A stretch of DNA of 18,612 nucleotides from Tepidisphaerales bacterium (GCA_038213005.1 JBBQTU010000061.1:1-18612); one strand, 5' to 3'; numbered from the stretch's first letter, positions 1 to 15,949 are shown. Numbers and translations are program-made. The notes: generated by a model from the sequence alone, not told the origin.

Positions 1-1
1 A

Positions 2-841
2 GGGCGTCTTGAGGAGGCCAGGCGGTGTACTGCGCAGATCGCCCGGCACTATGAGAACTTCACGGTGGTGTCGTGGATGCTGCCGCGGGCGATGCGTCAG
101 CACTTCTACAACGTCTATGCTTTCTGTCGCCATGCGGATGATCTGGCCGATGAGATCGCCGAGAAGGAGCGGTCGCTGGCTGAGCTGGCACGCCTGCGGG
201 AGGATGTCCGGCGCATGTATGGCGGTGAGCCCGAGCATCTCATCCTGGTCGCCTTGCGCGAGACGGTGCGGCAGTATGAGATTCCGCCGGAGCCGTTTCT
301 GGCGCTGATCGACGCGTTTGAGCAGGATCAGAAGGTAAGCCGGTATGAGACGTTTGAGCAGCTCCGCGACTACTGCCGGCGCAGTGCGGATCCGGTCGGG
401 CGGCTGGTACTCTATATGGCGGGGTATCGGGATGCCGAGCGTCAAGCCCTATCCGACTGCACGTGCACGGCGCTGCAACTGACCAATTTCTGGCAGGATG
501 TGGCGAGTGATCTTGGCCGGGGACGGATCTACATTCCGCGGGAGGATATGACGCGGTTCGGCGTGTGCGAACAGGACATCGTGGCCCGGCGATCGACGCC
601 GCAGTTTATCGAGATGATGAAGTTTGAGGTTGCCAGGGCGAGGGATCTGTTTGCCGATGGCCGCAAGTTGCTGCCGATGGTGAATCGGCGCGTGCGCGGC
701 GACATAGCTCTTTACGGGCTGGGCGGCCTGGCGATCTTGGATCGAATCGCCGGCGTCGGCTATAACGTGCTGGAGCGGCGGCCGACGCTGAGCAAGGCCG
801 CCAAACTTGGCCTCATAGCCCGCTATCTCATCGGAGTCTGA
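2..841 (+). CDS. hpnC: Squalene/phytoene synthase family protein, HpnC-like (hydroxysqualene synthase). 5' end lies outside the window.
   Basis: The reading frame is open from base 2 (…IARHYENFTVVSWMLP…). It carries the VYAFCRHADDLADE and NFWQDVASDLGRGRIYIPRED motifs typical of trans-isoprenyl diphosphate synthase head-to-head enzymes. The N-terminal YENF(P/T)V…LP signature matches HpnC. The stop overlaps the hpnD ATG (TGATG). Confidence 0.8.
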   Translation, partial: GRLEEARRCTAQIARHYENFTVVSWMLPRAMRQHFYNVYAFCRHADDLADEIAEKERSLAELARLREDVRRMYGGEPEHLILVALRETVRQYEIPPEPFLALIDAFEQDQKVSRYETFEQLRDYCRRSADPVGRLVLYMAGYRDAERQALSDCTCTALQLTNFWQDVASDLGRGRIYIPREDMTRFGVCEQDIVARRSTPQFIEMMKFEVARARDLFADGRKLLPMVNRRVRGDIALYGLGGLAILDRIAGVGYNVLERRPTLSKAAKLGLIARYLIGV

Positions 842-1845
842 TGCCCGACGAACTGGAACAGTCGCAGGAGTGGTGCCATCAGCGGATGCGTGAGGCGGCG
901 CGGAATTTCTACTACGGCATGCGCCTGCTGGCCCCCGACAAACGCAATGCCATGTATGCCCTGTATGCGTGGATGCGATGGATCGACGACCTGGCCGATG
1001 GGCCTGAAGACCAGCGCGATGAGGATCGCGATCTGGTCGCGGTCCGCAACTCGCTGGAGGATTGGCGCGAGCTGACGCATCGGGAACTGCAACCGGCTGC
1101 TGCCGGTAAATCCGAAATACGAAGTACGAAATACGAAACACCCTCTCCCAACCTCCCCCAAGGGGGAGGGGAAGAGAGTGGCGGCGGCCGCGCTGGCGGC
1201 GGCGCCGGCGGTCAGACGCCCTCGCATCCGATGTTCCCGGCCTTGGCCGAGGCGGTTCATCGGTTTGGCATCCCACCGGGGTTGTTTGATGAGGCGATGG
1301 ACGGGCAGCTTCAGGATCTGGAGCAGTCGCGATACGCCACCTTTGATGAACTCTACCGCTACTGCTACCGCGTGGCTTCGACCGTGGGCATCGCGGCGGT
1401 TTATATCTGGCGATTCAATTCGCCCGATGCCATCAAGCTGGCCGAGTATCGCGGCATCGCGTTTCAGCTCACCAACATCCTGCGGGACTTGCGCGAGGAT
1501 GCCTCGCGGGGGCGTGTCTATCTGCCGCAGGAAGATATTTCGCGATTTGGCGTGAGCCATCTGGACAAGCCTTCGCGGGAGCTGGCCGATCTGATCGCCT
1601 TCCAGGCCCGCAGGGCGAAGGAGTACTACCGGCAGTCGGCGCCGCTGGAGTCCATGATCGAGCCCGACTCGCGCCCGACTCTGCGGGTGATGACGGCGAT
1701 CTACGGCGGCATCCTCGACCAGATCATCGCCGACCCGCTGGCCGTGCTGCACAAGCGGGTTTCGCTATCGGGGCCGCGCAAGGTGGGCGAAGTGATGCGT
1801 CAGCTTTACCTCGCCGAGAAGTTGGCGATTGACGGAGCGCAGTAA
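841..1845 (+). CDS. hpnD: Presqualene diphosphate synthase HpnD-like (squalene/phytoene synthase family), with a ~40-aa low-complexity insertion.
   Basis: NFYYGMRLLAPDKRNAMYALYAWMRWIDDLAD and FQLTNILRDLREDASRGRVYLPQED motifs are present. It is translationally coupled to hpnC. At 334 aa it is ~45 aa longer than typical HpnD, because of the KSEIRSTKYETPSPNLPQGGGEESGGGRAGGGAGGQTP segment. Confidence 0.8.
   Translation: MPDELEQSQEWCHQRMREAARNFYYGMRLLAPDKRNAMYALYAWMRWIDDLADGPEDQRDEDRDLVAVRNSLEDWRELTHRELQPAAAGKSEIRSTKYETPSPNLPQGGGEESGGGRAGGGAGGQTPSHPMFPALAEAVHRFGIPPGLFDEAMDGQLQDLEQSRYATFDELYRYCYRVASTVGIAAVYIWRFNSPDAIKLAEYRGIAFQLTNILRDLREDASRGRVYLPQEDISRFGVSHLDKPSRELADLIAFQARRAKEYYRQSAPLESMIEPDSRPTLRVMTAIYGGILDQIIADPLAVLHKRVSLSGPRKVGEVMRQLYLAEKLAIDGAQ
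1105..1215. repeat. Intragenic repeat block inside hpnD: 4 tandem 7-mers (cgaaRYa, 1113-1140), a 42-bp imperfect palindrome (1139-1180; core cctccccc-aa-gggggagg) and a (ggc/gcg) tract.
   Basis: Read directly. caccctctcccaacctcccccaagggggaggggaagagagtg is nearly self-complementary. It is AT-rich and low-complexity, unlike the surrounding codon-biased sequence, yet stays in frame. Confidence 0.7.
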
Positions 1846-1847
1846 CA

Positions 1848-3137
1848 GTGACCCTGGACGCGATCGTTGTCGGCGGGGGACTGGCGGGCATGTCGGCCGC
1901 CACAGCGCTCACCGATGCCGGGGCGAGGGTTGCGCTGATCGAACAGCGCGGCTTGCTTGGCGGCCGGGCCGGCAGCTTTGTCAGTCCCGCCTTTTCCCGG
2001 CGCATGCTGGATAACTCTCAGCATGTCCTGCTGGGCTGCTGTGACGAACTCCAGGCGTTCTACGCGCGGCTCGGAGTCTCTCATCTCATCCAGTTTCAGG
2101 ATGACCTGATCTTCGCTGGTACCACCGGGCGCCGCGGAGTCATGAAGACATCCTGTCTGCCCGCGCCACTGCATCTTGGCCCGTCGATGCTGGGATTTGG
2201 CCTGATCCCGCTAGGGCATCGCATCGAGGTCGCCCTGGCGATGCTGCGAATGCAGGCGATCGGCCGGGATGGCCGCAACCAGTTCGCCGATGTCTCCTTT
2301 GAGCGCGTCCTGCTCGATCTGGGTCAGTCGGCCGGGGCCATCGCGTCATTCTGGGATGTCATCTGCGTGTCGGCGTTGAATGAGCCGTGCGCCACCGCGG
2401 CCGGGCACTACGGGCTCCAGGTTTTCCAGGAGGCGTTCCTGGGCGCTCGCGGCGGCTATCGTCTGGGCTTTGCCCGCGTGCCGCTGTCGATGCTGTATCG
2501 GCACCTGCCGATCGAGACGCTGCTGAACACATCGGTCAAGTCGCTCATTGTCGAATCCGGCCGCGCGTGCGGGGTGAGGCTCACCGATCGCGAACTGCGC
2601 GCCGACCGCATCATCCTGGCCGTCTCTCCCTGGTCGGCAGCGAGGCTATTCACCGCCGAACTGCTCGATGCCGACCCGCAACTCCGCCGCGTGCAGTCCC
2701 TCCAGTATCGCCCGATCGTCGGCGCGCATCTGCAATTCGACCGGCCGATCCTTGACGTCCCCAACCTCGCATTGATGGGCACGCGCCTGCACTGGGCATT
2801 TGCCGATAGCGACGATCCGACGCTGATCCACGGCGTGGCCAGTGCAGCCGACGACCTGTGCCCCCTGCCCCAGCAGGCCATTGCCGACCTGTTCGTCAAT
2901 GAGCTGCGCCAAACCTGCCCGGCCGCACGCAGCGCCACGCTTAGCCACTTTTTGATCGTCAAGGAAACCCGCGCCACCTTCCGCCCGCTACCGGGAGTCG
3001 ATGCTTTCCGCCCAACCCAACGGACGCGTGTCCCCGGTCTGACCCTGGCGGGCGATTACACGCAGACCACATGGCCCTCCACCATGGAGGGCGCAGTCCG
3101 ATCCGGCCGCCTTGCAGCGCGGGCTGCTCTGCGCTGA
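1848..3137 (+). CDS. hpnE: Hydroxysqualene dehydroxylase HpnE-like (FAD-dependent amine oxidase family).
   Basis: GTG start 3 nt after the hpnD stop. N-terminal Rossmann motif IVVGGGLAGMSAA…ALIEQR…LGGR. Contiguous with hpnC and hpnD. Confidence 0.85.
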   Translation: MTLDAIVVGGGLAGMSAATALTDAGARVALIEQRGLLGGRAGSFVSPAFSRRMLDNSQHVLLGCCDELQAFYARLGVSHLIQFQDDLIFAGTTGRRGVMKTSCLPAPLHLGPSMLGFGLIPLGHRIEVALAMLRMQAIGRDGRNQFADVSFERVLLDLGQSAGAIASFWDVICVSALNEPCATAAGHYGLQVFQEAFLGARGGYRLGFARVPLSMLYRHLPIETLLNTSVKSLIVESGRACGVRLTDRELRADRIILAVSPWSAARLFTAELLDADPQLRRVQSLQYRPIVGAHLQFDRPILDVPNLALMGTRLHWAFADSDDPTLIHGVASAADDLCPLPQQAIADLFVNELRQTCPAARSATLSHFLIVKETRATFRPLPGVDAFRPTQRTRVPGLTLAGDYTQTTWPSTMEGAVRSGRLAARAALR

Positions 3138-3299
3138 GTTGACAGGTGTGTGTTGCAGAGGAATAAGGAAGCGGCTGCGCCGACAGAATCGCTACGGCCG
3201 AGGACGGCACGTGCCACGGCTCGTGCAAAACAGAGCGCATCCTGGCCGGCGGGACAATCGAGCAAAAGCGAGAACTGATAGGCTTTTACGTACCGATAA

Positions 3300-3739
3300 T
3301 CAGGACGGCCCCGAACGAACTCCTATCACGTCGCTCTCAGCCTTCACGCGGCGCTCTTTAGCCAGACTGTAGCGGGGGAGGGTTTTGACGCCACCGAATG
3401 CTTCAATCAGTACATTTCCGGGATTGGCCCACTCTGTGCGACTGATCGTCTCGTGGCCGCTGCCGGAGACCCAAGCCCAGTCGCCCCGGCTCTTGGATCG
3501 GCACCGCTGCGATTTTGGGAACCACGCGATCTCACGGCGTGTCACGGAACAAAACGAAAGTACGACATCAAGGTATTGTCTTGACCGGCCAAGTGTTTCG
3601 CCTCGGGCGCGTTCTTCAGGGGTACGATAGCTGCGATCTGCCCCGTCGCCTCGTCGTAAGCCCAGCCAGCGTAAGCCCAACCGGGCGAAGCGACAGGCGA
3701 TTGCGTTGACACACTGGCGTGCCGCACTCGGGACATCAT
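3300..3739 (-). pseudogene. Two overlapping reading-frame fragments (3542-3739 and 3300-3680) that may be one degraded, frameshifted gene.
   Basis: No intact ORF. Frame B contains …GDWAWVSGSGHETISRTEW…, which faintly resembles a metallophosphoesterase GHxH-type motif. GC is lower than in the hpn genes. The region lies between hpnE and a decayed copy of the hpnE 3' end. Weakly supported. Confidence 0.25.
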
Positions 3740-3742
3740 TCC

Positions 3743-3856
3743 AGGCCTGACCCTTGCCGGGGATTACACGCAGACAACCTGGCCCTCCACCATGGAAGGC
3801 GCAGGTCTTGGTCCGACAACGACCTACAACAATCTTGCCAGAATTTGTTTGACCTG
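3743..3856 (+). pseudogene. Decayed duplicate of the hpnE 3' end (encodes IPGLTLAGDYTQTTWPSTMEGAG…).
   Basis: Bases 3745-3820 are ~85% identical at nucleotide level to 3037-3110 of the intact hpnE (cctgaccct.gc.gg.gattacacgcagac.ac.tggccctccaccatgga.ggcgcag). Only ~30 codons are conserved and there is no upstream continuation. Confidence 0.7.
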
Positions 3857-3955
3857 CCTCATCCGTTGTGGTTCTATGGGAGGTGCAAATCGTGCCGGTG
3901 GATATCTTGTTTGCCGGCCGTCATATCTGGTGGTCATTTTTTGTGGAGGACGGTT

Positions 3956-4234
3956 ATGCCTTTAGGAACCGTCAAGTGGTTTGATGCGAAGAAGGGTTAC
4001 GGCTTCATTCTTGGCCCCGAGGGCAAGGATGTGTTCGTTCACTTCAGTACGATCGCCGGCGATGGCTTCCGGTCCCTGCGGGACGGTGAGGCGGTCGAGT
4101 ACGACCTGACGGAAGGCGACAAGGGTCTGCTGGCCACTGCCGTCCGCCGGGCGGCCGCTGAGGCGATGGCGGGATCGGTCGAACCGGCCGCGCCAACCCC
4201 TTGGCGTGATCAATCGGTGTCGATGCACAATTAG
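3956..4234 (+). CDS. Cold-shock protein (CspA family) with a ~25-aa C-terminal tail.
   Basis: MPLGTVKWFDAKKGYGFI…DVFVHFS… cold-shock domain with RNP-1/RNP-2 motifs. SD GGAGGA lies 6 nt upstream of the ATG at 3956. The ORF tracker's upstream extension from 3719 has no supporting signal. Confidence 0.85.
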   Translation: MPLGTVKWFDAKKGYGFILGPEGKDVFVHFSTIAGDGFRSLRDGEAVEYDLTEGDKGLLATAVRRAAAEAMAGSVEPAAPTPWRDQSVSMHN

Positions 4235-4539
4235 TCTGGTGCGTCAGAAGGCTGACTCCCTGAGGTGGCATGTGTCCGCCAACTGCGAACGCATGGTTGC
4301 CAAGCGATATGAGGTGGCATTGGTGTGAAGCAGCACACGGGCCATCGCAGGAACATTTCGGTCTGGAATATTTTTAAGACACGTTCGGTGAAGACTGTTT
4401 CGCGGTCGGAGCGGTACGCCGTACAGGGCGCTTATCCAACGGGTAGGTGAGTGCGGCGGTCTGAGATGGGGCGGGCTGCCCCCGGTGCGGATGCTTTCTG
4501 TGCCGTGGGGCAGTCCGCTGCTGTCCGGGACCGGGCACC

Positions 4540-4725
4540 TCAGAACGACACGACCAATTGCCAGATGAAGGTGTAGGCGAGTGAGTCGACATCTTCCCAG
4601 ACCTTCTTGACCAGTTGTTCGTCGCCGGTCATCGGGGGGAGTTCCTGCTTCTTCTGGTCCCACGGGATGCAGACGCCAGGCGCGGGCGCGGGTGTCGCGG
4701 AAGGGGTTGGGGACACGGTTTCCAT
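4540..4725 (-). CDS. Small hypothetical protein (61 aa), translationally coupled downstream of the URO-D-like methyltransferase.
   Basis: AAAGGA sits 6 nt upstream of the ATG, which is 22 nt after the stop of the upstream gene on the same strand. No recognisable domain: Pro/Thr-rich N-terminus and a hydrophobic C-terminus (…LAYTFIWQLVVSF). Confidence 0.4.
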   Translation of the reverse strand: METVSPTPSATPAPAPGVCIPWDQKKQELPPMTGDEQLVKKVWEDVDSLAYTFIWQLVVSF

Positions 4726-4749
4726 AATGGGTCCTTTGTTAACTCGCGG

Positions 4750-5946
4750 TCAATACTGGCCGAACTCGCGGGCGGCCTGCGTCATGGCCTTCATGTTCTC
4801 GACGGTGGCGTCGTTCTGGATGATGGCGCCGGCGTCGAGGATGAAGCCGCCATCCCGGCCGACTTCCTGGATCACTTTCTTCACCCGGTCGCGGACCTCC
4901 TGCGGCTTTCCGTAGGCCAGCAGGGCGTTGTCGATGCCGCCGGAGATGGCGAACTTGTGGTGCAGGGCCTTGTGGACCAGGGCGATGTCATCCCGGTCGC
5001 AGTGGAAGACGATGCTGCCTTCGGGCAGTTCGCAGAAGGCCTTGAGGTGGTATTTCCACTTGCCTTCGGCGTAGAAGAGGACCTGCCGGCCACGCTTGTG
5101 AAGCTCGAGGATGATCGGCTTGAGGGTCGGCCAGTACATGGTGTCGAAGGTCTCCTGGGAGATCAGCGGGACGCAGCCGCGATGCATCCAGAAGCCGATG
5201 GGAACCGTGCCGGTGGGGTCGGAGCTGGTCAGGGCCACGTGGAGCATGTGGGGCATGAGAGCCTCGGCGGCCTTCTTGACCTGGGCGGGGCGCTCGAAGA
5301 CGTCTTCGGTGAGGCCGAGGTAGCCGCGGAACTTGTCGGCGATGATGTCGAAGGGGGACTTGAGGATGCCGGCGATGGCCGAGGGCATGGCGGCATCAAC
5401 CCGCATGCGCTGGACCTGGGCGGGGAATGAGCCGAAGTAGCTCATCAGGGCCATGCCGCCTTTGACCAGGGCGAGGTTGCTCTGGTAGGTCGCCGGCTCA
5501 CCGGGCCTGGTTACTTGCGTGGAGACGCGCGGGAGCCAGGTGTTGTAGAGGAAGGCCGTGGGGTCGGCGATGAGCTGGTCGTACTCGTCGGCCTGCATCC
5601 AGGATTGTCCCTCGGGAGGTTCGAGGTATTGGAAGCCGGTGTCAGGTGCGTGCCCGACGCCGGGGATGGCGTAATAGCGGAGTCCGACGGCCTGGGCGAT
5701 GCCGCCCCAGACGTAGACCATGTTGGCGACGGCGGCGTCCCAGTCGAAGTCGGCGCAGGTCTTGACGGTCGCGTCGAAGGCGAGGTTGAAATCCTGGGTC
5801 ACCTGCTGGCAGGTATAGCCGGTGTATCGCGCCACGAACTCGGCGACGAAGGGGCGAATGGGAACGCAATCGGGCTTGCCGTTGCGCAAGGCCGTGGTGT
5901 ATCGCTTGAGCCGCTGCTGGTAGAGCGTTTCTTTGTCGGTGGACAT
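4750..5946 (-). CDS. Uroporphyrinogen-decarboxylase-superfamily protein, MtaA/CmuA-like methyltransferase.
   Basis: Length and the C-terminal …GGFILDAGAIIQNDATVENMKAMTQAAREFG are characteristic of the URO-D-like methylcobamide methyltransferase fold. Start chosen at MSTDKETLYQQ (5946). An in-frame alternative start at 6018 adds 24 aa. Confidence 0.6.
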   Translation of the reverse strand: MSTDKETLYQQRLKRYTTALRNGKPDCVPIRPFVAEFVARYTGYTCQQVTQDFNLAFDATVKTCADFDWDAAVANMVYVWGGIAQAVGLRYYAIPGVGHAPDTGFQYLEPPEGQSWMQADEYDQLIADPTAFLYNTWLPRVSTQVTRPGEPATYQSNLALVKGGMALMSYFGSFPAQVQRMRVDAAMPSAIAGILKSPFDIIADKFRGYLGLTEDVFERPAQVKKAAEALMPHMLHVALTSSDPTGTVPIGFWMHRGCVPLISQETFDTMYWPTLKPIILELHKRGRQVLFYAEGKWKYHLKAFCELPEGSIVFHCDRDDIALVHKALHHKFAISGGIDNALLAYGKPQEVRDRVKKVIQEVGRDGGFILDAGAIIQNDATVENMKAMTQAAREFGQY

Positions 5947-6137
5947 AAGAGCACCAGTATAGCCGTGGCGAAAGAAGAAAGCAGGCGGCGTCTCGGACAA
6001 CACGGCGTGTCGGACCACCGTTGGCCTGCTTCAGGCACTGTCGCACTTCTATCGCCTGTTTGGCAAGCGCTTCGGTCTGACTCTGCGGAACTACCGGCAG
6101 CGGCAGCAGATGATCCTGGGGCGGGGGGAGCGACGCT

Positions 6138-6236
6138 GAGGGCGGGTGAGGCGATTCCGGGTTGGCGCCCGATTGACAGGCGTTGCGGCTGACTTACGAT
6201 GCTTGCGGCGGCGGGAGTTGTCGATTCCTTTCCGGA
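6138..6236 (+). promoter_or_regulatory. Conserved promoter/leader element, copy 1: GATTCC…CGATTGACA-16nt-TACGAT…GCGGGAGTTGTCGATTCCTTTCC.
   Basis: Sigma70-like -35 TTGACA and -10 TACGAT with a 16-nt spacer. ~80% identical over ~100 bp to 12888-12990. Lies immediately upstream of nfeD and divergent from the URO-D-like methyltransferase. Confidence 0.55.
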
Positions 6237-6242
6237 TACACC

Positions 6243-6818
6243 ATGCGAGCATTCTATTTCTTCTGCGCATTAGCGGGCGGAGCGCTGTTCTTCCTGCAGT
6301 TCCTGCTGGGGCTGTTTGGGCACGGCGACGGGCATGATGTGGATGGGCATGTGGATGCCCACGCCGGGGGGGATGTCGGGCACGAGACGAGCATGTTGAC
6401 CGGCATTCTCACGCTGCGGGCGATGGTGGCGGGGCTGACGGTTTTCGGGCTTACGGGCCTGATTACGCTCACATCGACGATGCACGTGGGGCTGGGGCTA
6501 CTGATCTCAATCGGGGCGGCATTCGTGAGCATGATGATCGTCGCAGCGCTGATGCGTTCGATGAGCAGTCTGTATAGCGAGGGGACCGTCCGGGTCGAGA
6601 ATGCCGTCGGCCGCCCGGGGACGGTATATCTGGGCATCCCGGCCAGGGGCAACGGCGTCGGCAAGGTGACGCTGACGCTGCAGAATCGGACGGTTGAATA
6701 TCAGGCTGTGACGGCCGGTGAGGCGTTGCCCATCGGGACCCGAATCAATGTGACCAAGGTAATCGGCGCCGACACTGTCGAGGTGGTAGGTGCCATGAAA
6801 CAGGAGAAAGTCGCGTGA
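6243..6818 (+). CDS. NfeD-family membrane protein (YqiJ-like, short form with C-terminal OB-fold).
   Basis: An N-terminal membrane segment, a His/Asp-rich linker (HGDGHDVDGHVDAHAGGD), more membrane helices and a C-terminal beta-rich soluble domain. The stop overlaps the flotillin GTG (GTGA). This is the classic nfeD-SPFH operon arrangement. The tracker's upstream extension from 6183 uses a TTG. Confidence 0.7.
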   Translation: MRAFYFFCALAGGALFFLQFLLGLFGHGDGHDVDGHVDAHAGGDVGHETSMLTGILTLRAMVAGLTVFGLTGLITLTSTMHVGLGLLISIGAAFVSMMIVAALMRSMSSLYSEGTVRVENAVGRPGTVYLGIPARGNGVGKVTLTLQNRTVEYQAVTAGEALPIGTRINVTKVIGADTVEVVGAMKQEKVA

Positions 6819-8467
6819 ATACCCTATTGCCCCTGGCGCTACTGACGGACGATCCGTACTTCCTTTCCGGCGTGCTGGTGGTCTTCGGCGTCTTTTTCCT
6901 GTTCAGCATCTTCCTGCTGTTCGTCCGGCGGTACAAGCGCTGCCCGAGCAACCGCGTGCTGGTGGTTTTCGGCAAGGTCGGGGCCGGCACGTCCGCCAAG
7001 TGCATCCACGGCGGCGGCACGTTCGTTCTGCCGCTGATCCAGGACTACAGCTACCTGAGCCTGGAGCCGATCCAGGTCGAAATCCCGCTGCAGGATGCCC
7101 TGTCGATGGAGAACATTCGCGTCAACGTCCCCAGCGTGTTTACGGTGGCGATCGGCACCGAGCTGGAGGTCATGCAGAACGCCGCCATCCGCCTGCTCGG
7201 GCTGGACACGGCTCACGTCAAGCAGCAGGCGCAGGACATGATCTTCGGACAACTGCGCCAGGTCATCGCGTCGATGCGGATCGAGGACATCAACCGCGAC
7301 CGCGAAGTATTTTTACAGAACATCCAGACGTCACTGGAGCCCGAACTGCGCAAGATCGGCCTGGTGCTGCTGAACGTCAACATCACCGATATCACCGACG
7401 CCTCGGGCTACATCGAGGCCATCGGCAAGAAGGCCGCGTCGCTGGCGATCCAGCAGGCGCGTGCTGATGTCGCCGACAATGAGAAGATGGGCGAGGTCCG
7501 CGTCGCCGAGGCCAAGCGGGAGAAGGACATCCAGGTTGCCAACGCCAACAAGCTCCGCGAGATCGGCATGCGCGAGGCGCAGCGCGAGCAGCTCGTGAAG
7601 GTGGCGCAACTCGAAAAGGAACAGAAGATCGGCGAACAGACCGCCTCTTATGAACGTGAGACGCAGGTCAAGAACGCCGAACGCGACATGCGCATCACGA
7701 TGTCCGACGCCAACGCCAAGGCCATCGCCGGCGAAGCCAGGGCACAGGCCGAGATCGTCAACACCCAGGCGCAGCTCCAGGTGAAACAGGCCGAAGCCTA
7801 TCAGCTCGGCGAGACCCGCAAGCGCGAATCCGAAGCGGCCGTGCTTGAGGCGCAGAACCGCGCCATGGCCAAGGCGGCCATCGCTGACGCCGAACGAGTT
7901 GAGGCCGAGCGCCGGGCGCAGCTCGAAGCGCCCGCGAAGGCGGATAAGGCCAAGATGATCGTCGATGCCGAAGCCGCCGCGGCCAAGAAGCGGATCGAGG
8001 CCGAGGGTGAGGCGTCTGCAATCTTCGCCCGGCTCGAAGCCGAGGCCCGCGGCCAATACGAGCTCCTGGCCAAAAAGGGCCAAGGCCTCGAACGGATCAT
8101 CCAGGCCTGCGGCGGCGCAAAGGAGGCGTTCCAGCTCCTGATGCTCGAACACCTGGACAACCTGGCGGAAACCGCCGCCACGGCGATCTCCAAGATCAAG
8201 TTCGACAAGATCGTGGTCTGGGAACAGGGGGGCAAGGATGGCAGTTCCAATACCGCCAACTTCCTCCATGGTCTATCTCGCACGCTGCCTCCGATGATGC
8301 AGGTGATGAAGGACATCGGCGGCGTGGAGCTCCCGGAATACCTGGTCAAGCTGGGCGGCGACCCGGGCGACAAGCAGTGCGACAAGCCTGCGGCTACGGT
8401 GACGGCCGATGGGGCCGTGAACCAGGCCGATAAGGGCAGCGCAGCGCACGGGGTGGAAAAGGCCTGA
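6815..8467 (+). CDS. Flotillin-like SPFH/band-7 protein (YqiK/FloA-like).
   Basis: N-terminal TM helix, then SPFH domain (…RVLVVFGKVGAGTSAKCIHGGGTFVLPLIQDYSYLSLEPIQVEI…), followed by a long Ala/Glu/Lys/Arg/Gln-rich coiled-coil region and flotillin C-terminus. SD AGGAGA 8 nt upstream of the GTG. Confidence 0.85.
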   Translation: MNTLLPLALLTDDPYFLSGVLVVFGVFFLFSIFLLFVRRYKRCPSNRVLVVFGKVGAGTSAKCIHGGGTFVLPLIQDYSYLSLEPIQVEIPLQDALSMENIRVNVPSVFTVAIGTELEVMQNAAIRLLGLDTAHVKQQAQDMIFGQLRQVIASMRIEDINRDREVFLQNIQTSLEPELRKIGLVLLNVNITDITDASGYIEAIGKKAASLAIQQARADVADNEKMGEVRVAEAKREKDIQVANANKLREIGMREAQREQLVKVAQLEKEQKIGEQTASYERETQVKNAERDMRITMSDANAKAIAGEARAQAEIVNTQAQLQVKQAEAYQLGETRKRESEAAVLEAQNRAMAKAAIADAERVEAERRAQLEAPAKADKAKMIVDAEAAAAKKRIEAEGEASAIFARLEAEARGQYELLAKKGQGLERIIQACGGAKEAFQLLMLEHLDNLAETAATAISKIKFDKIVVWEQGGKDGSSNTANFLHGLSRTLPPMMQVMKDIGGVELPEYLVKLGGDPGDKQCDKPAATVTADGAVNQADKGSAAHGVEKA

Positions 8468-8599
8468 CCGAGGAGCCGGCGACCGCCACCGCAGAGCGTG
8501 GCGGCGGAAGTATAGCGCAGGCAATCGATTGACCGTCATCAAGTCGCTGTCCTATTTCAAAGAGGCCGATGCGGAGGGGCCTGCGGCCAAGTGGGGCGG

Positions 8600-8804
8600 G
8601 CCGCCTCGGCCGCCCATCTGGTCGCTCGCCAACCACCCGCCCATCGCAGCGCCACACCCTCAACCGCCGATCCGCCAAACAGTAGTGCGTGGCGTCCCGC
8701 CCGCACATGTCTTACAGGTGAGTAATCGCCGGCCAAGCCGTTGACGATCTTCATCGTTTCGATGCTGACGTAACGCAACGAAAGGGCTGCCGAGGCAGCG
8801 GCCC
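8600..8804. repeat. ~200-bp direct repeat, copy A. Shared core: …ggccgcccatctggtc.ctcgccaaccacccgcccatcgcagc…gccgatccgccaaacagtagtgcgtggcgtcccgcccgcacatgt.ttacaggtgag.aatcg…ccaagccgttgacgatct.catcgtttcgatgctgacgtaacgcaac.aaagggctgccgaggc.
   Basis: ~94% identical to 9948-10139 by direct comparison. Its 3' ~55 bp also matches 12296-12352. Lies between the flotillin operon and the TA module. Confidence 0.85.
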
Positions 8805-9007
8805 CACCGTGAGGACGCGCAATGGACTTACGCTGTAGTGCTAGGAGTAATATACACACAGCGAGGCCCAACCAGAACAACCCAAGGCCAAAGGTGAGGC
8901 ATTGGCCGAACCGGTCCGGTCCTGAGGCCATCATCACGGGTAAGGCGGGACGGCATATCGATCCCATGCCCGTTTTCCGGCCCACCAAGCCCGCTTTCTG
9001 CGTCCTT

Positions 9008-9481
9008 CTATTCTGTCGGCTGCCGCAGCAAGTCCAGAAACTCCTCTACAGCCAGCACTTTGACTTTCGGGAAAAGCCGCCTGAACTCCGCAGACCAGGG
9101 TTTATCCGGACTACTCAACCCAAGAAGGTGACGGTCGCGACTGACAATCAGCCGGGCTTCAGCCGCCACCGCCAGATCCACATACGGGGAGTCGTCAGGA
9201 TCAATCGGGTGGTCAAACACATGTGGAACAGGAGCGACAACCAGGCACGACGGCAACAACGCATCCAGAAACGCCACCACCTTGGCATCGGTCACGTCGT
9301 ACTTCGCCAGCAGTTTGCGGGGAAGATCTTCGATCTCCGCAATCACGTAGGGACTGAGAACCACAACGAACTCGTTCTTGACGCCGCGCTCAACACACTC
9401 GCCCGCCGGTCCGTACGGGTTAATGAGAGCTTGGGCAAACACCATGCAATCCAGCACCGCTCGCATGGGTCGGCTATTCAT
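9008..9481 (-). CDS. PIN-domain toxin (VapC-like).
   Basis: Size and the …AVLDCMVFAQALI…VVVLSPYVIAEI…LAVAAEARLIVSRD… pattern fit a PIN fold. The ATG at 9481 overlaps the upstream antitoxin stop (ATGAATAG). The 9526 start in the tracker would overlap the antitoxin by 50 nt. Region GC ~52%. Confidence 0.65.
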   Translation of the reverse strand: MNSRPMRAVLDCMVFAQALINPYGPAGECVERGVKNEFVVVLSPYVIAEIEDLPRKLLAKYDVTDAKVVAFLDALLPSCLVVAPVPHVFDHPIDPDDSPYVDLAVAAEARLIVSRDRHLLGLSSPDKPWSAEFRRLFPKVKVLAVEEFLDLLRQPTE

Positions 9482-9746
9482 CAAAGGAGATACCGCGTTT
9501 GGTTTCCCTCGCCTGATGCTTGGCACGTTCTAGGTCGTCGCCAAGTTGTTCGTCTGTCAGACCGCTGGCGAGGAACCGATCATAGGTGTTGCCACTGATC
9601 TGACGCAGATAGTCGCGGGTCAACCCGTGAGTCAGGACTCGCGAGAGCAACTCAGAGGCAAGGATACCCAGATCCTTGCCTGCGGCCGTAGCCCGCTCGC
9701 GCAGGAGAATCTCAACTTCAGGCGATAATGCAACGGAAACCGTCAT
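9474..9746 (-). CDS. Ribbon-helix-helix (CopG/Arc-like) antitoxin.
   Basis: 90 aa, immediately upstream of and overlapping the PIN gene. N-terminal VALSPEVEILLRERATAAGKDLGILASELLSRVL resembles the RHH beta-strand/helix DNA-binding motif. No SD. Confidence 0.55.
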   Translation of the reverse strand: MTVSVALSPEVEILLRERATAAGKDLGILASELLSRVLTHGLTRDYLRQISGNTYDRFLASGLTDEQLGDDLERAKHQARETKRGISFDE

Positions 9747-9947
9747 CAAAGAATAGTATGGGCAGCAACCAGGTCCAAGTCAAACTCTTACGTCGTTGTC
9801 TTGGGAATTTCACGAGGTTGGAATCAATGCCGAGGTTGACAGCGATTCCGCCGCCCCAGCCCAGGAACCCCGACCTCAACAACCAGCGCGCCGCCGCGCC
9901 GCTCCCAGAGTGGGGCCGGCCGCTGCGCAGCATCTCGCCGTGGTGGA

Positions 9948-10139
9948 CCCGGCCGCCCATCTGGTCCCTCGCCAACCACCCGCCCATCGCAGCACCATAC
10001 CCCCAACCGCCGATCCGCCAAACAGTAGTGCGTGGCGTCCCGCCCGCACATGTATTACAGGTGAGCAATCGACAGCCAAGCCGTTGACGATCTCCATCGT
10101 TTCGATGCTGACGTAACGCAACAAAAGGGCTGCCGAGGC
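9948..10139. repeat. ~200-bp direct repeat, copy B.
   Basis: See copy A, with ~12 mismatches over 190 bp. Lies between the TA module and the RM module. Confidence 0.85.
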
Positions 10140-10264
10140 GGGCGATGTATTGGAGGTCGTCCTGTCGGTTTGGGTCGCTGGTAATATTGCTGCGGGTGTC
10201 GGTGTAGACAAGGTATTGGTCGGTGACCCATTCCAGGGCGGAGCGGTTGCCGAGGCGGTAGTTA

Positions 10265-11230
10265 TCAACTGGCTTCCGCCTCTGCTTCAGGTTGCACGGC
10301 TTTGAGGACGGTCGGTTCTGCAGCGGCGATTGGATGTGGCCGTGAGAGGAATTCCCATAAGTCAGTGCAGAAGAACCGGTCGATGGAGTGAATTTGCAGC
10401 TTGAGGAACGCATCCGTCTGCATATTGGGGCGAAGGTCGCAGTAGTACACGCCATCGAGAGGGTTTAGCTTAACCGAGTAGCCCTTGAAGTGTCCGGGCA
10501 AAAATGTGGCATTGATGCCGAAGTTGGGATGTATCCCCTTGCGTTGCACGTCATTGAGGAACAGTGCGACGTGTGGCGTTTGCGTCTGCGTCAGCTTGGA
10601 GTAGAGGAACTTGTCGATGAAGATCTTGTCCATTCGGTCCTTACTCGACGTCTTCACGGAGCCGAGAATCTTGATGTGTTTATCTCGCGTAATGACCAAA
10701 TCGTGCTGGTAGGTCATCTTGAATTCTTCGACACCGTCAACGATGATCGGGATGCCGATGGACCCGCTCTTGCAGTCGACCGCGAGGCCAGAAATCAGCA
10801 GTCTTATCAGCCTCTCGAAGAGATCCCCTGCGACCTTGCTGGCGTTATTCGAGACCGGATGCGCGTCCAGGCACACGCCGATGCACTGCTGAATCGTATA
10901 GATCGAATTGCGCATGATGGTGCGACTCGCCACGTCGTCCGCAGCAATGTCCTTCGCGTGCTTCATCACAGCGGCGAAGTCCCTGGAAAGCACGTTCGCC
11001 TTCTGCGGCGCATACATAAGTTGGCTGTTCACCGGCCGGCTTACTTTGCGGTCGCCGTCGTCCTTGAACTGGTAAAAATAGTAGTGACCCTCATTCCTCG
11101 CCAAGACAGTGCCATGTACACCGCCCTTACCCAGGAAGTCGAGGAAACGGCGTGCGAAGTCCACGTAAGCTTTGACATTGCTGAAGTTCGTCTTGTCGGC
11201 GGCAAAGGAAACGAGTTGGTTCAGAGTCAT
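10265..11230 (-). CDS. Putative Type II restriction endonuclease (family not recognised).
   Basis: Its ATG overlaps the stop of the upstream beta-class DNA methyltransferase (ATGA at 11227-11230). GC is ~50% in a ~65% genome. A PD-(D/E)XK-like stretch (…HDLVITRDKHIKILGSVKTSSKDRMDKIFIDK…) is possible. Assignment rests on operon context. Confidence 0.5.
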   Translation of the reverse strand: MTLNQLVSFAADKTNFSNVKAYVDFARRFLDFLGKGGVHGTVLARNEGHYYFYQFKDDGDRKVSRPVNSQLMYAPQKANVLSRDFAAVMKHAKDIAADDVASRTIMRNSIYTIQQCIGVCLDAHPVSNNASKVAGDLFERLIRLLISGLAVDCKSGSIGIPIIVDGVEEFKMTYQHDLVITRDKHIKILGSVKTSSKDRMDKIFIDKFLYSKLTQTQTPHVALFLNDVQRKGIHPNFGINATFLPGHFKGYSVKLNPLDGVYYCDLRPNMQTDAFLKLQIHSIDRFFCTDLWEFLSRPHPIAAAEPTVLKAVQPEAEAEAS

Positions 11231-12183
11231 CGGATGCTTTCTCTTCGTGTGGCGTTTCGCCGGTCGTGCTCTATCCACTCGTCGACAGGCGTTCGTTTGA
11301 CGTTTTCAATTCGCTCCACCGCCCATCTTGTATACTCCGTGCTTTGGTCGCATGCGAGCCACCTCCGACCGAGTTGCTCGGCTACCGCCGCCGTCGTGCC
11401 GGAGCCACTGAAAGGGTCGATGACAAGGTCGCCCGGATCGCTCGCGGCGAGCACAAGTTTGCGCACCAACTCCTCTGGCTTTTGCGTGGGATGGGGCGTC
11501 TTTTCGCCCATGCCATTGCAGGTCGTCGGAATCTCAAGCACATCCTTTGGCTTTGCTCCGAGTGGGTTCGGGGTCCAATCGTCTTCGCGCTTCCGACCGC
11601 TGCCAAAGTTGCTCGTGATCGCCTGAGGGTGTGTCGGGTATTTCAGCGTGTGAGCGCCGTACGGTATGCGGACCTTGTCCACGTTCAGACGGAATTCGTC
11701 GGTCTTCCGAAGGTGCAAAATGCTTTCGTGTGACCGCCCCCAGTCACTTCCGAGGTTCGCCTTGTTCTTGTAGTGCCAGACCAGCCACTTGCAGTGCTTG
11801 AACAAACGCGACGCCGGGTGCTTCATATCCGCAAGGATCTCTGAGAAGCCGCACACATAGAGCGATCCCGAAGGCCTCAGCGCCCGCGCGGCGGGCTCAA
11901 GCCATCGCATCGACCATTGTATGTAATGCTCCTGGCTCTCAAACGCGTCCCAATCAGCTTTGTTGATGTTGTACGGCGGATCAGCGAAAATCAGATCGAC
12001 GGACGACGGAGGGAGGGATTCCAGCCAAGGTATGCAGTCACCAACGTAAAGCGATCCATTCGGATGCGTGTAAAACAACGCGAAGCCTTCGCCATTGACC
12101 GTGCTATCGACGAACTTACCGCGAGTTGGACCGGGCTCCGCAAAGAGCTGCGGTGTCCCAGGCTTGAACCGCTTTATGGGCAT
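11227..12183 (-). CDS. Beta-class DNA methyltransferase (probably N6-adenine, possibly N4-cytosine).
   Basis: Motif IV DPPYN (…LIFADPPYNINKADWD…) precedes motif I FSGSGTT (…VIDPFSGSGTTAAVAEQLGRRW…). That permuted order defines the beta group. Low GC. Confidence 0.85.
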   Translation of the reverse strand: MPIKRFKPGTPQLFAEPGPTRGKFVDSTVNGEGFALFYTHPNGSLYVGDCIPWLESLPPSSVDLIFADPPYNINKADWDAFESQEHYIQWSMRWLEPAARALRPSGSLYVCGFSEILADMKHPASRLFKHCKWLVWHYKNKANLGSDWGRSHESILHLRKTDEFRLNVDKVRIPYGAHTLKYPTHPQAITSNFGSGRKREDDWTPNPLGAKPKDVLEIPTTCNGMGEKTPHPTQKPEELVRKLVLAASDPGDLVIDPFSGSGTTAAVAEQLGRRWLACDQSTEYTRWAVERIENVKRTPVDEWIEHDRRNATRRESIR

Positions 12184-12295
12184 TTCAGAACCTTAACATA
12201 TTCCAGGGCCTACTGGTAGCCACATCCATGCTCGCGCGGGCAGTACGGAGCCCGGAATCGGAAGAGGTTGACGCCCTGCTGGATAGCACGGCACC

Positions 12296-12352
12296 GATGG
12301 AGGTGCTGACGTAATGCAACGAAAGGCCGGCCGAGGCGGTCGCCCCACTGCG
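12296..12352. repeat. Partial third copy (3' ~55 bp) of the 200-bp repeat.
   Basis: gatg..ctgacgtaa.gcaacgaaagg…gccgaggc.g…gcccca c.g.g.g matches the end of copy A. The match includes the A-specific tail beyond the point where copy B diverges. Confidence 0.6.
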
Positions 12353-12887
12353 GAGACCGGGAAACAGAATATCTTTCAAATCCAACTTGACCCATCAAGA
12401 CCCGTATCTTATGCTTATCTCACTTAGCCATAGCGCCCAGTGTGCGCGCTGGCTACGGTGCTCTTTGAAAAGTGAATATCCGGCCATTTACTGGCCAGTG
12501 CCGCCATGCGGCCCCGCGGCACTCCGTCGGACTAGCGAACTTTACCGTATGCTAACATCTACCGTCGCACAGGTGCCCTGCCTTCCACCGGTCCCGTTCT
12601 GACTCGACTTACATTCAAGCGCCTCGGCAGAACGAAACTTGAGCATCTGACCCCTTGAATCGCACGTAAGTCCTTATCAAAACTCCTCTCCCGACCCCCT
12701 CCCCCCACCCCTGGAAAACGTGCGCATCTTGCCCGCCCGATCGCACGTAAGTCAGACTGGCAGTGCGGGGGAATGGTGGAAAGTCAGTGGCAAGCAGAAA
12801 GGCCAGCGCAATAACGGTGGTGGAAAGCACTCGCCACGCGCAGGATGCAAAGTCACGGGCACGCCCGCCTGCAAGGCCGCAAGGCCA

Positions 12888-12990
12888 GACTACGCGCGAA
12901 TCGATTCCAGCCCGACGGCCGATTGACACGCGGGCCGGCTCACTTACCATGTTTTGCGATGGCGGGAGTTGTCGATTCCTTTCCCGATAG
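12888..12990 (+). promoter_or_regulatory. Conserved promoter/leader element, copy 2 (-35 TTGACA, -10 TACCAT, conserved downstream GGCGGGAGTTGTCGATTCCTTTCC).
   Basis: Aligned by eye to 6138-6236 (~80% identity). Lies ~115 bp upstream of the homocysteine methyltransferase ATG. Confidence 0.55.
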
Positions 12991-13105
12991 GCCGGGTGCT
13001 TTGACGCCGCATGGGGTGGAAAAGGCCAGACCGCGGAGCCGGAAGTGGCTGCGGCGTTGCGCAGCGAAAACCAACTCGAACGTTTCAGCACGAAGGGATC
13101 GCGAC

Positions 13106-13993
13106 ATGGGTATCATTCTGGATCGTCTGGCCAAGAAGAAGCTGCTGGTGTCCGACGGCGCCTGGGGCACGATGCTGCAGGCCCAGGGGCTTGGCGGTGG
13201 CGACATTCCGGAAGAGTGGAACGCCACGCACCCCGATGCCGTGCGCTCGGTCGCCGCGGCCTATGACCAGGCCGGCTGCGATATCGTCCTCACTTGCACG
13301 TTCGGCGGGTCGTCGGCGAAGCTGGAGAAGTGCGGCCTGGGCGCGCGGGTTGTGGAACTGAATGAGAAGGGGGCCAGGTTGTCGCTGGAGGGCGCGCCCC
13401 ATGCGTGCGTGGCGGCGTCGGTGGGGCCCACGGGCGAGTTCCTCGAACCCATGGGCGACCTGACCGAAGCGCAGATGGAAGCGATCTACCGCGAGCAGAT
13501 CGCCGCCATTTACGCAGCCGGCGTCAAGGCGGTCTGCATCGAGACGATGTCGTCGCTTGAGGAAGCCACCTGCGCGATCCGCGCGGCCAAGAAGCTGAAT
13601 AAGGACAATGATGTCATCTGCACGATGACGTTCGCCGCGGCGGGCGATGGCTACAAGACGATGATGGGCGTGAGCTGCGAAGAGGCGGCCAAAGGCCTGA
13701 CCGCGGCCGGCGCGGACATCGTCGGGGCCAACTGCGGCAACGGGCCGGAGGAGATGATCGCCATCACCCGCGAGATGCGCAAGCACACGAAGCGGCCGAT
13801 CCTGGTCCATCCCAATGCGGGGATGCCGCAACTGGTGGACGGCAAGACGGTTTTCAAGCAGACGCCGGCCGACATGGCGGCCAAGGTGCGAGACCTGGTC
13901 GCGGCCGGGGCCTCGATCATCGGAGGGTGCTGCGGCACCACCCCGGCACATATCGCCGCGATCAAGGTTGTGGTGGATGAGCTTCGGAAATAA
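13106..13993 (+). CDS. Homocysteine S-methyltransferase domain protein (MetH N-terminal domain / MmuM / BHMT-like, Pfam S-methyl_trans type).
   Basis: …LLVSDGAWGTMLQ…DIVLTCTFGGS…GANCGNGPEEM…IIGGCCGTTPAHIAAI…. The zinc-ligand cysteines lie in the GxNCG and GGCCG motifs. SD AAGGGA 7 nt upstream of the ATG at 13106. The tracker's 12845 start is an upstream run-on. Confidence 0.85.
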   Translation: MGIILDRLAKKKLLVSDGAWGTMLQAQGLGGGDIPEEWNATHPDAVRSVAAAYDQAGCDIVLTCTFGGSSAKLEKCGLGARVVELNEKGARLSLEGAPHACVAASVGPTGEFLEPMGDLTEAQMEAIYREQIAAIYAAGVKAVCIETMSSLEEATCAIRAAKKLNKDNDVICTMTFAAAGDGYKTMMGVSCEEAAKGLTAAGADIVGANCGNGPEEMIAITREMRKHTKRPILVHPNAGMPQLVDGKTVFKQTPADMAAKVRDLVAAGASIIGGCCGTTPAHIAAIKVVVDELRK

Positions 13994-14017
13994 GTTTTGC
14001 ATACAGAGGCGAGAAAC

Positions 14018-15088
14018 ATGATTCGACTTGCGATTGTGGGCTGCGGTGGAATGGCTAAGGGCTACCACGTCCACCAGCTACAGAAGATCAGCGACTACAA
14101 GGTGGTGGCCCTGTGCGACATCGTGAAGGAGAAGACGGCCGACTTCCGCAAGCGGCATTTCAACGACGCCGTTGAGTTTGATGACTTTGACACGATGCTC
14201 AACGACGGCCCGGAACTGGACGCCGTGCTGCTGGTCACGCCTCATACGGTGCATTACGGTCAGGCGAAGGCAGCCCTGGAAAAGGGTCTGCATGTCATGT
14301 GCGAGAAGCCGCTGGTGACCAGTTCCAAGCATGCCTACGACCTGTGGAAGACCGTGAAGCGGACGGGCAAACTGCTGGCGATCACGTTTCAGTCGGCCTA
14401 CTCGGCGGAGTTTGGCCACCTGGCGCAGTTGCGCGACCAGGGCAAGCTGGGACAGGTGCAGAACATCTCGGGCTATGTCTCCCAGGGCTGGCGCAAGGGA
14501 TGCGCCGGCACGTGGCGTCATGACCCGGCCATGTCAGGCGGCGGGTACATCTACGATACCGGGGCTCACCTGCTCAACGCCCTGATGTGGCTGATGAATA
14601 GCCCGGTGGTCGAGGTGTCGTGTATCATGGACAACTGCGGCGCGCCGGTGGACATTCGCGGGTCGGCATCGCTGCGGTTTCAGAACGGGGTGTTCGGCAC
14701 GGTGACGATGGCGGGGAACACGCCGGCCTTTCGGAGCGAGATCCAGATATTCACCGACAGTATGGTGGTCATCACCGATCAATATGGCGGGAAGCTGGAG
14801 ATGATCGACGGCTCGGGCAAGCGGATGTATCCGCACGTGCCGGAGGATGCCCGGCCGGCGGCCGGGACGCCGCACCTGAACTTCGCCGATGCAGTGTTGC
14901 GCGGGGCACCGCTGCGGGCCCCGGTGCGCTATGGCGTGCTGCTGTCGGCGCTGATGGATGCGATGTACCAATCGGCGAAAGCCGGCACGCCGGTGAAGGT
15001 GAAGCCGGTGCCGCTGGACATCGAGGTGGACGCCAGGCCGGCGAAGAAGACCAGGCCGGCGGCGAAGGCGAAGACCGCGAGGAAGTAA
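14018..15088 (+). CDS. Gfo/Idh/MocA-family NAD(P)-dependent oxidoreductase with a Lys/Ala-rich C-terminal tail.
   Basis: N-terminal Rossmann IRLAIVGCGGMAKGYH. Conserved EKP (…VMCEKPLV…) and GfO/Idh C-terminal domain. 24 nt after the upstream gene's stop. SD AGAGG. Confidence 0.85.
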   Translation: MIRLAIVGCGGMAKGYHVHQLQKISDYKVVALCDIVKEKTADFRKRHFNDAVEFDDFDTMLNDGPELDAVLLVTPHTVHYGQAKAALEKGLHVMCEKPLVTSSKHAYDLWKTVKRTGKLLAITFQSAYSAEFGHLAQLRDQGKLGQVQNISGYVSQGWRKGCAGTWRHDPAMSGGGYIYDTGAHLLNALMWLMNSPVVEVSCIMDNCGAPVDIRGSASLRFQNGVFGTVTMAGNTPAFRSEIQIFTDSMVVITDQYGGKLEMIDGSGKRMYPHVPEDARPAAGTPHLNFADAVLRGAPLRAPVRYGVLLSALMDAMYQSAKAGTPVKVKPVPLDIEVDARPAKKTRPAAKAKTARK

Positions 15089-15171
15089 GCCGCGGTCTGG
15101 CCCAGGCCCTCGATCCGCTCGGGGCAGATCGACGGGCTAGCACTACAGCGCAACTTCATAGCGATGCGATG

Positions 15172-15235
15172 CAATTTCAAATAGGACGCGCTTCGATTGA
15201 CGGCAATTTCAAATAGGACGCGCTTCGATTGACGG
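15172..15235 (+). repeat. Perfect tandem duplication of the 32-bp unit caatttcaaataggacgcgcttcgattgacgg.
   Basis: Read directly. Each unit ends in the recurring CGATTGAC -35-like octamer. Lies downstream of the oxidoreductase gene and upstream of a small ORF with a strong SD. Confidence 0.8.
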
Positions 15236-15588: not shown

Positions 15589-15679
15589 GCGCATCAATAA
15601 CCGTCCGGTTCAAAAAGCGCACCCCCTCCCAACCTCCCCTAGGGGGGAGGAGTACCATTCCTGCCAGTTATTGATGCGC
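15589..15679. repeat. MITE/REP-like palindromic element: 13-bp perfect terminal inverted repeats (gcgcatcaataac / gttattgatgcgc) around an inner hairpin ctcccaacctcccc-tag-gggggagg.
   Basis: Read directly. It sits exactly between two convergent stop codons (15583 and 15686). The inner core is shared with the hpnD intragenic palindrome (1139-1180) and partly with 12683-12714. Confidence 0.65.
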
Positions 15680-15685
15680 CGGTCT

Positions 15686-15949
15686 TTACGGCTGGCGCTT
15701 GGCGTCTTCGGCCGCCTTTTCGGCAGCGGCTTTGACATCGGCGGCTTCCTTGTCGGCCTTGGCCTTGGTGTCGGCGGCGGCCTTCTCAGCGTCGGCCTCC
15801 GCGTTGGCGGCATCCTTCTTGGCCTCGGCCCTGGTGTCGGCGGCGGTCTTGGCGGCGTCGGTGGCGGCGGGCGTTTGTGGCCGATCATCACAGCCCACCA
15901 TCAAGGCGCCTGTCAGAAACAGCGGCAGTATGAAAAGCTTCGTACGCAT
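15686..15949 (-). CDS. Small secreted Ala/Lys/Asp-rich lipoprotein (87 aa).
   Basis: Signal peptide with lipobox (MRTKLFILPLFLTGALMVGC). SD AAGGGAG 5 nt upstream. Low-complexity A/K/D/E repeats. The competing plus-strand Gly-rich ORF and minus-strand Pro-rich ORF are frame artefacts of the same repeats. Confidence 0.6.
   Translation of the reverse strand: MRTKLFILPLFLTGALMVGCDDRPQTPAATDAAKTAADTRAEAKKDAANAEADAEKAAADTKAKADKEAADVKAAAEKAAEDAKRQP

Follow-up and report, generated by a model that had tools for sequence, protein, structure and literature searches.

In Bacillus subtilis, the yuaF(nfeD)-floT operon is part of the sigma-W membrane-stress regulon. An operon of the same plan was found in the window analysed here, which is one whole contig (18.6 kb) from a planctomycete MAG and to which all copy counts in this text refer. 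As in B. subtilis, nfeD precedes the flotillin gene and one dedicated promoter is predicted to serve both, but the promoter appears to be of the housekeeping type and not ECF, has no GAAAC...CGTA, and implies no stress regulator. Promoters of planctomycetes appear to be little characterised in the literature searched. A diverged second copy of the nfeD-floT promoter and leader lies upstream of hmt, a homocysteine S-methyltransferase-domain gene, and in the history reconstructed here, both as to direction and as to mechanism, the promoter-leader was probably duplicated from nfeD-floT and captured by hmt.

The two copies (copy 1, 6138-6242; copy 2, 12888-12993) are homologous, with an identity of about 75-80% and a single 1-nt indel in the whole alignment. 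Mean column identity was 79% in a wider MAFFT alignment and about 75% over the coordinates of the initial annotation, in which the two similar stretches had been rightly paired but the second one ended at 12990; the partner of 6138-6236 is 12888-12987. The earlier view of a promoter with a transcribed leader, conserved beyond the -10 box, was upheld. Similarity runs well past the two promoter boxes: identical positions between the copies number 22/35 in the upstream segment, 6/6 in the -35 box TTGACA, 11/16 in the 16-nt spacer, 5/6 in the -10 box (TACGAT in copy 1, TACCAT in copy 2), 4/9 in the discriminator, 24/24 in the leader block GGCGGGAGTTGTCGATTCCTTTCC at about +3 to +27, and 6/9 in the tail. 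Both copies also point towards the genes named in the initial annotation. When up to 3 mismatches are tolerated, the window contains exactly two occurrences of the 19-mer GGCGGGAGTTGTCGATTCC, where 0.01 would be expected, and a scan of the window for sigma-70-like sites returned copy 1 and copy 2 as the two best matches, each with 10/12 positions.

Table 1. Features of the nfeD-floT and hmt-gfo loci, in coordinates of the window.
Feature	Coordinates	Strand	Remarks
URO-D-family gene, weakly MtaA/HemE-like	4750-5946	minus	Pfam URO-D E=6e-22; NCBIfam hemE and MtaA weak
Copy 1, upstream part	6138-6172	+	CGATTCC at 6152-6158; CGA of the extended -35 CGATTGAC; 22/35 against copy 2
Copy 1, putative core promoter	6173-6200	+	TTGACA 6173-6178, 16-nt spacer, TACGAT 6195-6200; 10/12, joint best in the window
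Copy 1, leader block GGCGGGAGTTGTCGATTCCTTTCC	6210-6233	+	24/24 against copy 2
NfeD-like gene	6243-6818	+	Named by homologues
Flotillin gene floT	6815-8467	+	Band_7, FloT-like; overlaps nfeD
Source of second shared block	8445-8479	+	Last 23 nt of floT including TGA, and 12 nt past the stop
Lower-GC stretch	ca. 8.7-12.9 kb (8480-12887)		ca. 54-58% GC against 62-65% elsewhere; between the operon and copy 2
Copy 2, upstream part	12888-12922	+	CGATTCC at 12902-12908; conserved in L021
Copy 2, putative core promoter	12923-12950	+	TTGACA, 16-nt spacer, TACCAT; 10/12
Copy 2, leader block	12961-12984	+	Identical to the copy 1 block; 23/24 in L021
floT 3'-end remnant	13008-13042	+	32/35 against 8445-8479; stop TGA changed to AGA
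Distal hmt leader	13043-13105	+	Variable GC hairpin, then a proximal stretch nearly identical in L021
hmt (homocysteine S-methyltransferase-domain, S-methyl_trans)	13106-13993	+	295 aa
gfo (Gfo/Idh/MocA oxidoreductase)	13997-15088	+	Directly after hmt

We infer that the element acts as a housekeeping-type (sigma-70-like) promoter and contributes the first ca. 30 nt of the transcript. From the position of the promoter, transcription of nfeD would start near 6207, and the leader block of copy 1 makes up most of the resulting 5' UTR of ca. 36 nt; the end of the -10 box is 42 nt from the nfeD ATG. ECF-type and sigma-54-type promoters were also considered by eye on either strand, and no such pattern is conserved between the copies. 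A coding role of the element, suggested by in-frame ORFs from 6183 and 12845, was rejected because the leader indels between the window and the independently assembled locus L021 are not multiples of three, and because the NfeD N-terminus M-x-x-x-Y-F-x-C-A is kept in the orthologues. The closest named homologues of the NfeD-like protein of the window are from Gemmataceae, and one homologue is a Trinity transcriptome sequence.

Four orthologous loci with NfeD protein identities of 70% (L112), 68% (L022), 65% (L113) and 64% (L020) were compared with copy 1. At all four, TTGAC(A/T) or TTGAAT, a 16-nt spacer and TAC(C/G)ATG precede nfeD in the same position as in copy 1, and TACCAT, which is the -10 box of copy 2, is the native nfeD -10 box in L022, L112 and L113. 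In the wider sample of 63 dereplicated distant planctomycete nfeD loci, about 40 carry TTGAC(A/G)-17-xATCAT, and TTGACA is the most enriched hexamer 5' of nfeD. Since equivalent promoters thus precede nfeD in the orthologues, the promoter and 5' UTR native to the nfeD-floT operon are those of copy 1.

The leader block has a narrower distribution than the promoter. In L022, the nfeD leader matches the 24-nt block at 17 positions (p<5e-5 by shuffling), against a best score of 15 among 76 distant nfeD leaders; L020 matches at 13/24, which is not significant. The closest NfeD orthologue, L112, has a short leader without the block, in which GGAG is the Shine-Dalgarno sequence, 9 nt from the ATG, and so the block is younger than the promoter. 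A motif shared by three nfeD leaders, GGAG-N4-CG-N-TTC, was left out as evidence, because it was defined post hoc and is lost in L112 and L113; it is clade-specific and absent from 80 distant orthologues.

Another planctomycete clade carries a different sequence within 100 nt before nfeD, an inverted-repeat-like GAT(T/C)C.GCC ... GGCGAA(C/T), which either brackets the -10 box AAATCAT or makes a tight leader hairpin (L047, L057, L065, L086, L093, L099, L102, L106, L111, L075, L097 and L104). Of 80 upstream regions, 13 contained it, compared with 22 of 3432 windows of background, and it could serve nfeD-floT as an operator or leader element; no earlier description of this motif at nfeD was found.

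Genes of the squalene/hopanoid type (two SQS_PSY genes and an amine oxidase; hpnC/D/E-like) are located at 65-3137, 3 kb from nfeD-floT (6243-8467). Their vicinity fits the link between SPFH-NfeD operons and polyisoprenoid lipids that is announced in the title of a review cited in PMC8581546.

The origin of copy 2 is indicated by its surroundings. A second block, missed in the initial annotation, is shared between the two loci: the 35 nt at the floT stop codon (8445-8479) have a counterpart at 13008-13042 with 32/35 identical positions, 23 nt 3' of the copy 2 leader block and in the order and orientation of the operon. Homology beyond these 35 nt was not significant (p=0.36). Because promoter-leader and floT-stop block are collinear, copy 2 looks like the two ends of the operon without its interior. 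Two points count against fixing the direction of transfer from the floT block: orthologous flotillins have no conserved C-terminal tail, and L021 retains only ca. 12 nt of the block.

At the downstream side, the end of the copy 2 -10 box is 155 nt from the hmt ATG, and the sigma-70-like scan gave no other promoter-like site between copy 2 and hmt. With TTGACA-16-TACCAT as promoter, the predicted start is near 12958, and the transcript would reach hmt-gfo after a leader of ca. 150 nt; copy 2 is accordingly placed as the predicted present promoter of hmt-gfo, and hmt is probably expressed in parallel with nfeD-floT.

The relatives place hmt in other company. Apart from L021, the closest Hmt relatives are 82-88% identical to that of the window and represent six sampled lineages, none of which has the element at hmt; the cluster-type spacers inspected were ca. 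70-90 nt long. In L017, L018/L019 and L026, hmt is the final gene of a CODH/ACS (Wood-Ljungdahl) cluster containing CooC, CooS, ACS, the CFeSP subunits, RACo and DUF3786; in L025, DUF3786 is directly 5' of hmt, with the contig end beyond it, and L030 and L031 have other contexts upstream of hmt. Among the sampled relatives, the element stands before hmt-gfo in the window lineage and in L021 only. The latter is an independent Logan assembly from another run, with an Hmt of 95% identity and the order element-hmt-gfo as in the window. By this distribution, copy 2 is the derived, lineage-specific copy.

In the relatives with a DUF3786 gene before hmt (L017, L018/L019, L026 at about 1-10900, and L025 at 1-1590), the protein encoded after DUF3786 is a PF02574 protein (homocysteine-binding, MetH-N-like), and the stretch shown of the L017, L018/L019 and L026 clusters contains no pterin-binding AcsE-type methyltransferase. 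The PF02574 protein may be a methyl-corrinoid:thiol methyltransferase of the CODH/ACS pathway.

Comparison with L021 also tells how copy 2 has evolved since its arrival. The element is identical at 72 of 79 positions, against 72% at the fourfold-degenerate sites of hmt (binomial p=3.7e-5), which places the promoter-leader module under purifying selection in front of hmt. On both sides of it, alignment is poor and gap-rich, namely in the ca. 110-130 nt 5' of the element and in a 45-nt stretch beyond the first half of the floT remnant, of which remnant L021 keeps only the first ca. 12 nt. The proximal hmt leader differs by one substitution and one 1-nt indel, and is non-coding, because the indel lies directly before the ATG. 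At several positions changed in copy 2 of the window, e.g. in GGCTGACTTACGATG, L021 agrees with copy 1, as is expected if both copy 2 sequences descend from a copy-1-like sequence. With copy 2 selectively maintained, some co-regulation of nfeD-floT and hmt would be a reasonable consequence.

Further upstream of copy 2, a 38-nt repeat (...CGCACGTAAGTC) occurs at 12635-12672 and 12716-12753, 81 nt apart. The stretch 12688-12753, which holds the second of these repeats, is ca. 94% conserved in L021 (1-66), and the neighbouring DNA aligns poorly.

In the proposed course of events, copy 2 would be a paralogue of copy 1 placed before hmt-gfo. The nfeD-floT operon would have been duplicated and its interior then deleted, so that what remained was its promoter and leader, possibly with a few initial nt of nfeD, and the final 35 nt at the floT stop; hmt would thereby have adopted the nfeD promoter in the window lineage, i.e. 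by promoter capture. One possible path is a tandem duplication and a subsequent deletion, perhaps with an insertion afterwards; alternatives would be recombination with a homologous fragment or a Campbell-type event. The donor could have been this genome itself or that of a close relative. The operon and copy 2 are separated by the lower-GC stretch, which may be foreign or mobile DNA and whose right-hand end, as judged from L021, was already in the common ancestor. That small segmental copies do occur in this contig follows from the duplicated 3' fragment of the hpnE-like amine-oxidase gene, of which a 64-nt piece (3033-3096) recurs at 3741-3804 with 88% identity. The fragment copy is situated ca. 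700 nt downstream, before a cold-shock gene, and each of its 8 differences is silent when read in frame with hpnE; a diverged homologue may have left this remnant, or it may reflect a scar of recombination or the mixing of strains during assembly.

Within the lower-GC stretch, a DNA methylase gene (N6/N4) is encoded on the minus strand at 11227-12183, and the other ORFs have no family match. A 190-nt repeat of 95% identity is found there at 8607-8796 and 9950-10139, and a third, partial copy of its end, TGCTGACGTAAYGCAACGAAAGG followed by a hairpin, at 12304-12357.

As the native nfeD promoter was probably copied to a site before hmt, a gene with another upstream context in six related lineages, the case reads as one of ordinary promoter capture and not of a new RNA element or a methyl-transfer regulon. 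The initial annotation had seen in the two copies the sign of a common regulon of methyl-transfer genes; the similarity is best explained by common descent through duplication, and copy 1 is predicted to drive nfeD-floT and not the URO-D gene, which is divergent from it and lies outside the element. A conserved divergent URO-D/nfeD pair was considered and rejected, as the neighbour differs among relatives: upstream of nfeD there is thiC in L020 and an unrelated gene in L112, L022 and L113, with 357 nt and 210 nt available 5' of nfeD, gave no gene call there, and no URO-D gene was found beside nfeD within the upstream sequence available from the relatives. The URO-D link is a coincidence of this contig. 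The looped repressor that had been proposed between two GATTCC motifs ca. 65 bp apart fares no better. The two CGATTCC motifs are actually 70-71 bp apart; none of the four orthologous nfeD promoters has the upstream GATTCC, nor is the upstream part of copy 1 conserved in them; and the window shows no enrichment of CGATTCC (6 occurrences, 4.1 expected).

A regulatory role of the leader block on its own is compatible with the duplication, and competes with it solely over the cause of the perfect conservation of these 24 nt. It is possible, though we hold it to be rather less than probable, that the invariant block is an operator or 5'-end mRNA site of a putative repressor, activator or RNA-binding protein. 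The block is identical at 24/24 positions between the copies, against ca. 70% for the other parts of the element; a run of 21 invariant positions is common to copy 1, copy 2 and L021 (p ~0.05 in a rough neutral estimate, which is weak statistical support); and the nfeD leader of L022 retains 17 of the 24. In copy 2, the block is ca. 120 nt from the start codon and yet conserved at 23/24 in L021, so any function would belong to the promoter-proximal region or to the 5' end, and not to a ribosome-binding site. Against such a site stand the lack of a palindrome or direct-repeat half-sites in the block, and of any inverted repeat common to the two copies (none was found in copy 1), which also tells against the looped repressor. 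Moreover, no regulator gene adjoins either copy within the window, L112 is without the block and the 13/24 of L020 are not significant, the known sites are only two, and gene conversion between the copies could equally yield a perfect run. The block might thus serve as an operator, affect promoter escape or the stability of the mRNA 5' end, or else owe its identity to gene conversion. The fuller proposal, in which the block is a lineage-specific operator or 5'-end RNA site that put hmt under flotillin-NfeD control by duplication, is more doubtful still. If true, it would represent a small regulon forming by the copying of promoter and operator, and a corrinoid/homocysteine-type methyltransferase, away from the Wood-Ljungdahl genes, would share the control of a membrane-microdomain operon.

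Membership in a dispersed repeat family (a promoter-carrying MITE or REP-like element), or a generic strong promoter, is an improbable source of the two copies. The contig is rich in other short repeats, and the extended -35 CGATTGAC occurs six times on the + strand against 0.78 expected, which indicates that part of the similarity between the copies is a lineage-typical promoter feature; CGATTGAC is probably the extended -35 of this lineage. The element as a whole, however, has only two copies in 18.6 kb and no terminal inverted repeats, and a single segmental copy is what the collinear 3' fragment of floT suggests. An nhmmer profile built from three element copies (copy 1, copy 2 and L021) was searched against the window and the loci L017-L113: no third copy was found in the window, and none in L017-L113 beyond the orthologous nfeD promoters, the next match being the L022 nfeD promoter (E=0.04), with the L020 nfeD promoter among the matches of E>4 (E=5.4). 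In 596 Gb of representative genomes, a collection from which the source species is absent, the 19-mer gave 15 matches, about the number expected by chance and all without promoter context, including one in a Planctomycetaceae MAG. A 21-mer gave no match in the JGI metagenomes, in which the source species is likewise not represented, and neither viral contigs nor, by blastn, plasmids returned a match.

The six CGATTGAC sites are at 1826, 6170, 8526, 12920, 15194 and 15226, all on the + strand and mostly intergenic, and two of them lie inside an exact 32-nt tandem repeat (15171-15234). By our own reading, GTCCTATTT(C/G)AAA is common to this tandem repeat (minus strand) and to about 8544-8556 (+ strand). 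Other repeats of the contig include a 31-nt GC hairpin repeat, CCTCCCCCAAGGGGGAGG, at 1139-1169 and 15620-15650 with 90% identity, one copy of which is within the hpnD-like ORF and gave a weak whalefall-1 match in Rfam (E=0.79, far below the gathering score). Degenerate GC-rich repeats with offsets of 15-33 nt, possibly coding on the minus strand, occupy 15698-15862, and four tandem units of 16-18 nt, CGTCCTCTTTGAGAGG, are found at 16009-16095, just downstream of a hybrid histidine-kinase gene (16164-17819, minus strand).

It is very improbable that the leader is a structured cis-regulatory RNA such as a riboswitch or attenuator. A 7-bp hairpin, CGGCGGC GGGA GTTGTCG, can be drawn at its 5' end, and the variants CGGCGGC, CGATGGC and CGGTGGT of the 5' arm can all still pair, via G-U or A-U. 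However, the minimum free energies of both leaders and of L021 do not differ in the stabilising direction from those of shuffled sequences (z +0.2 to +1.0), only 4 of the 7 hairpin positions pair in L022 by our own reading of the alignment, and the nfeD 5' UTR is only ca. 36 nt long. The shared RNA element that had been suspected in the two leaders found no backing in Rfam either, with no match at the element even at E<=1. Pairing of the block with the ribosome-binding region of hmt (14 bp, -18.3 kcal/mol) was discarded, as 16% of random 30-nt windows of the contig do equally well.

An assembly artefact, i.e. a chimeric join or a collapsed strain variant, is hardly credible: the window is a complete MAG contig, and the fragment pair 3033-3096/3741-3804, differing at synonymous sites only, could reflect strain mixing, but assemblers would not confuse copies of ca. 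75-80% identity, and the order repeat-element-hmt-gfo is identical in the independent assembly of L021.

With promoter capture as the preferred reading, no new class of element is needed, and the suggested methyl-transfer regulon dissolves. The locus would instead offer a clean and datable case of a gene that, without its usual upstream genes, regained expression by a borrowed promoter and leader, with a 3' scrap of the donor operon remaining beside the captured promoter as a footprint. The comparison also supplies promoter models for nfeD-floT of planctomycetes, TTGACA-16-TACSATG for this clade and TTGACR-17-xATCAT for the wider group.

Set beside known systems, the element resembles sigma-70 promoters in its TTGACA, its 16-nt spacer, and a -10 box whose second and sixth positions are A and T, in its correct orientation and distance to the gene, and in the repetition of this architecture at orthologous genes; it departs from the sigma-70 consensus in a -10 box of TAC(G/C)AT followed by G in place of TATAAT, and the transcription start is a predicted one. 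With the SAM, SAH and cobalamin leaders, copy 2 shares the position upstream of a homocysteine-methyltransferase-domain gene and a leader of ca. 150 nt, but unlike these riboswitches and leader RNAs of methionine and one-carbon genes it has no Rfam match and no stable or conserved structure, and its conserved part appears to be borrowed from an unrelated operon. A further parallel is promoter capture by segmental duplication. The event proposed here is a reconstructed one, and a lower-GC stretch of ca. 4.4 kb separates the copies; as in such captures, the likeness of the copies extends to positions without function as well as to functional ones, the promoter is accompanied by another piece of the donor locus, and the recipient gene hmt is found in related lineages without the element and in another upstream context.
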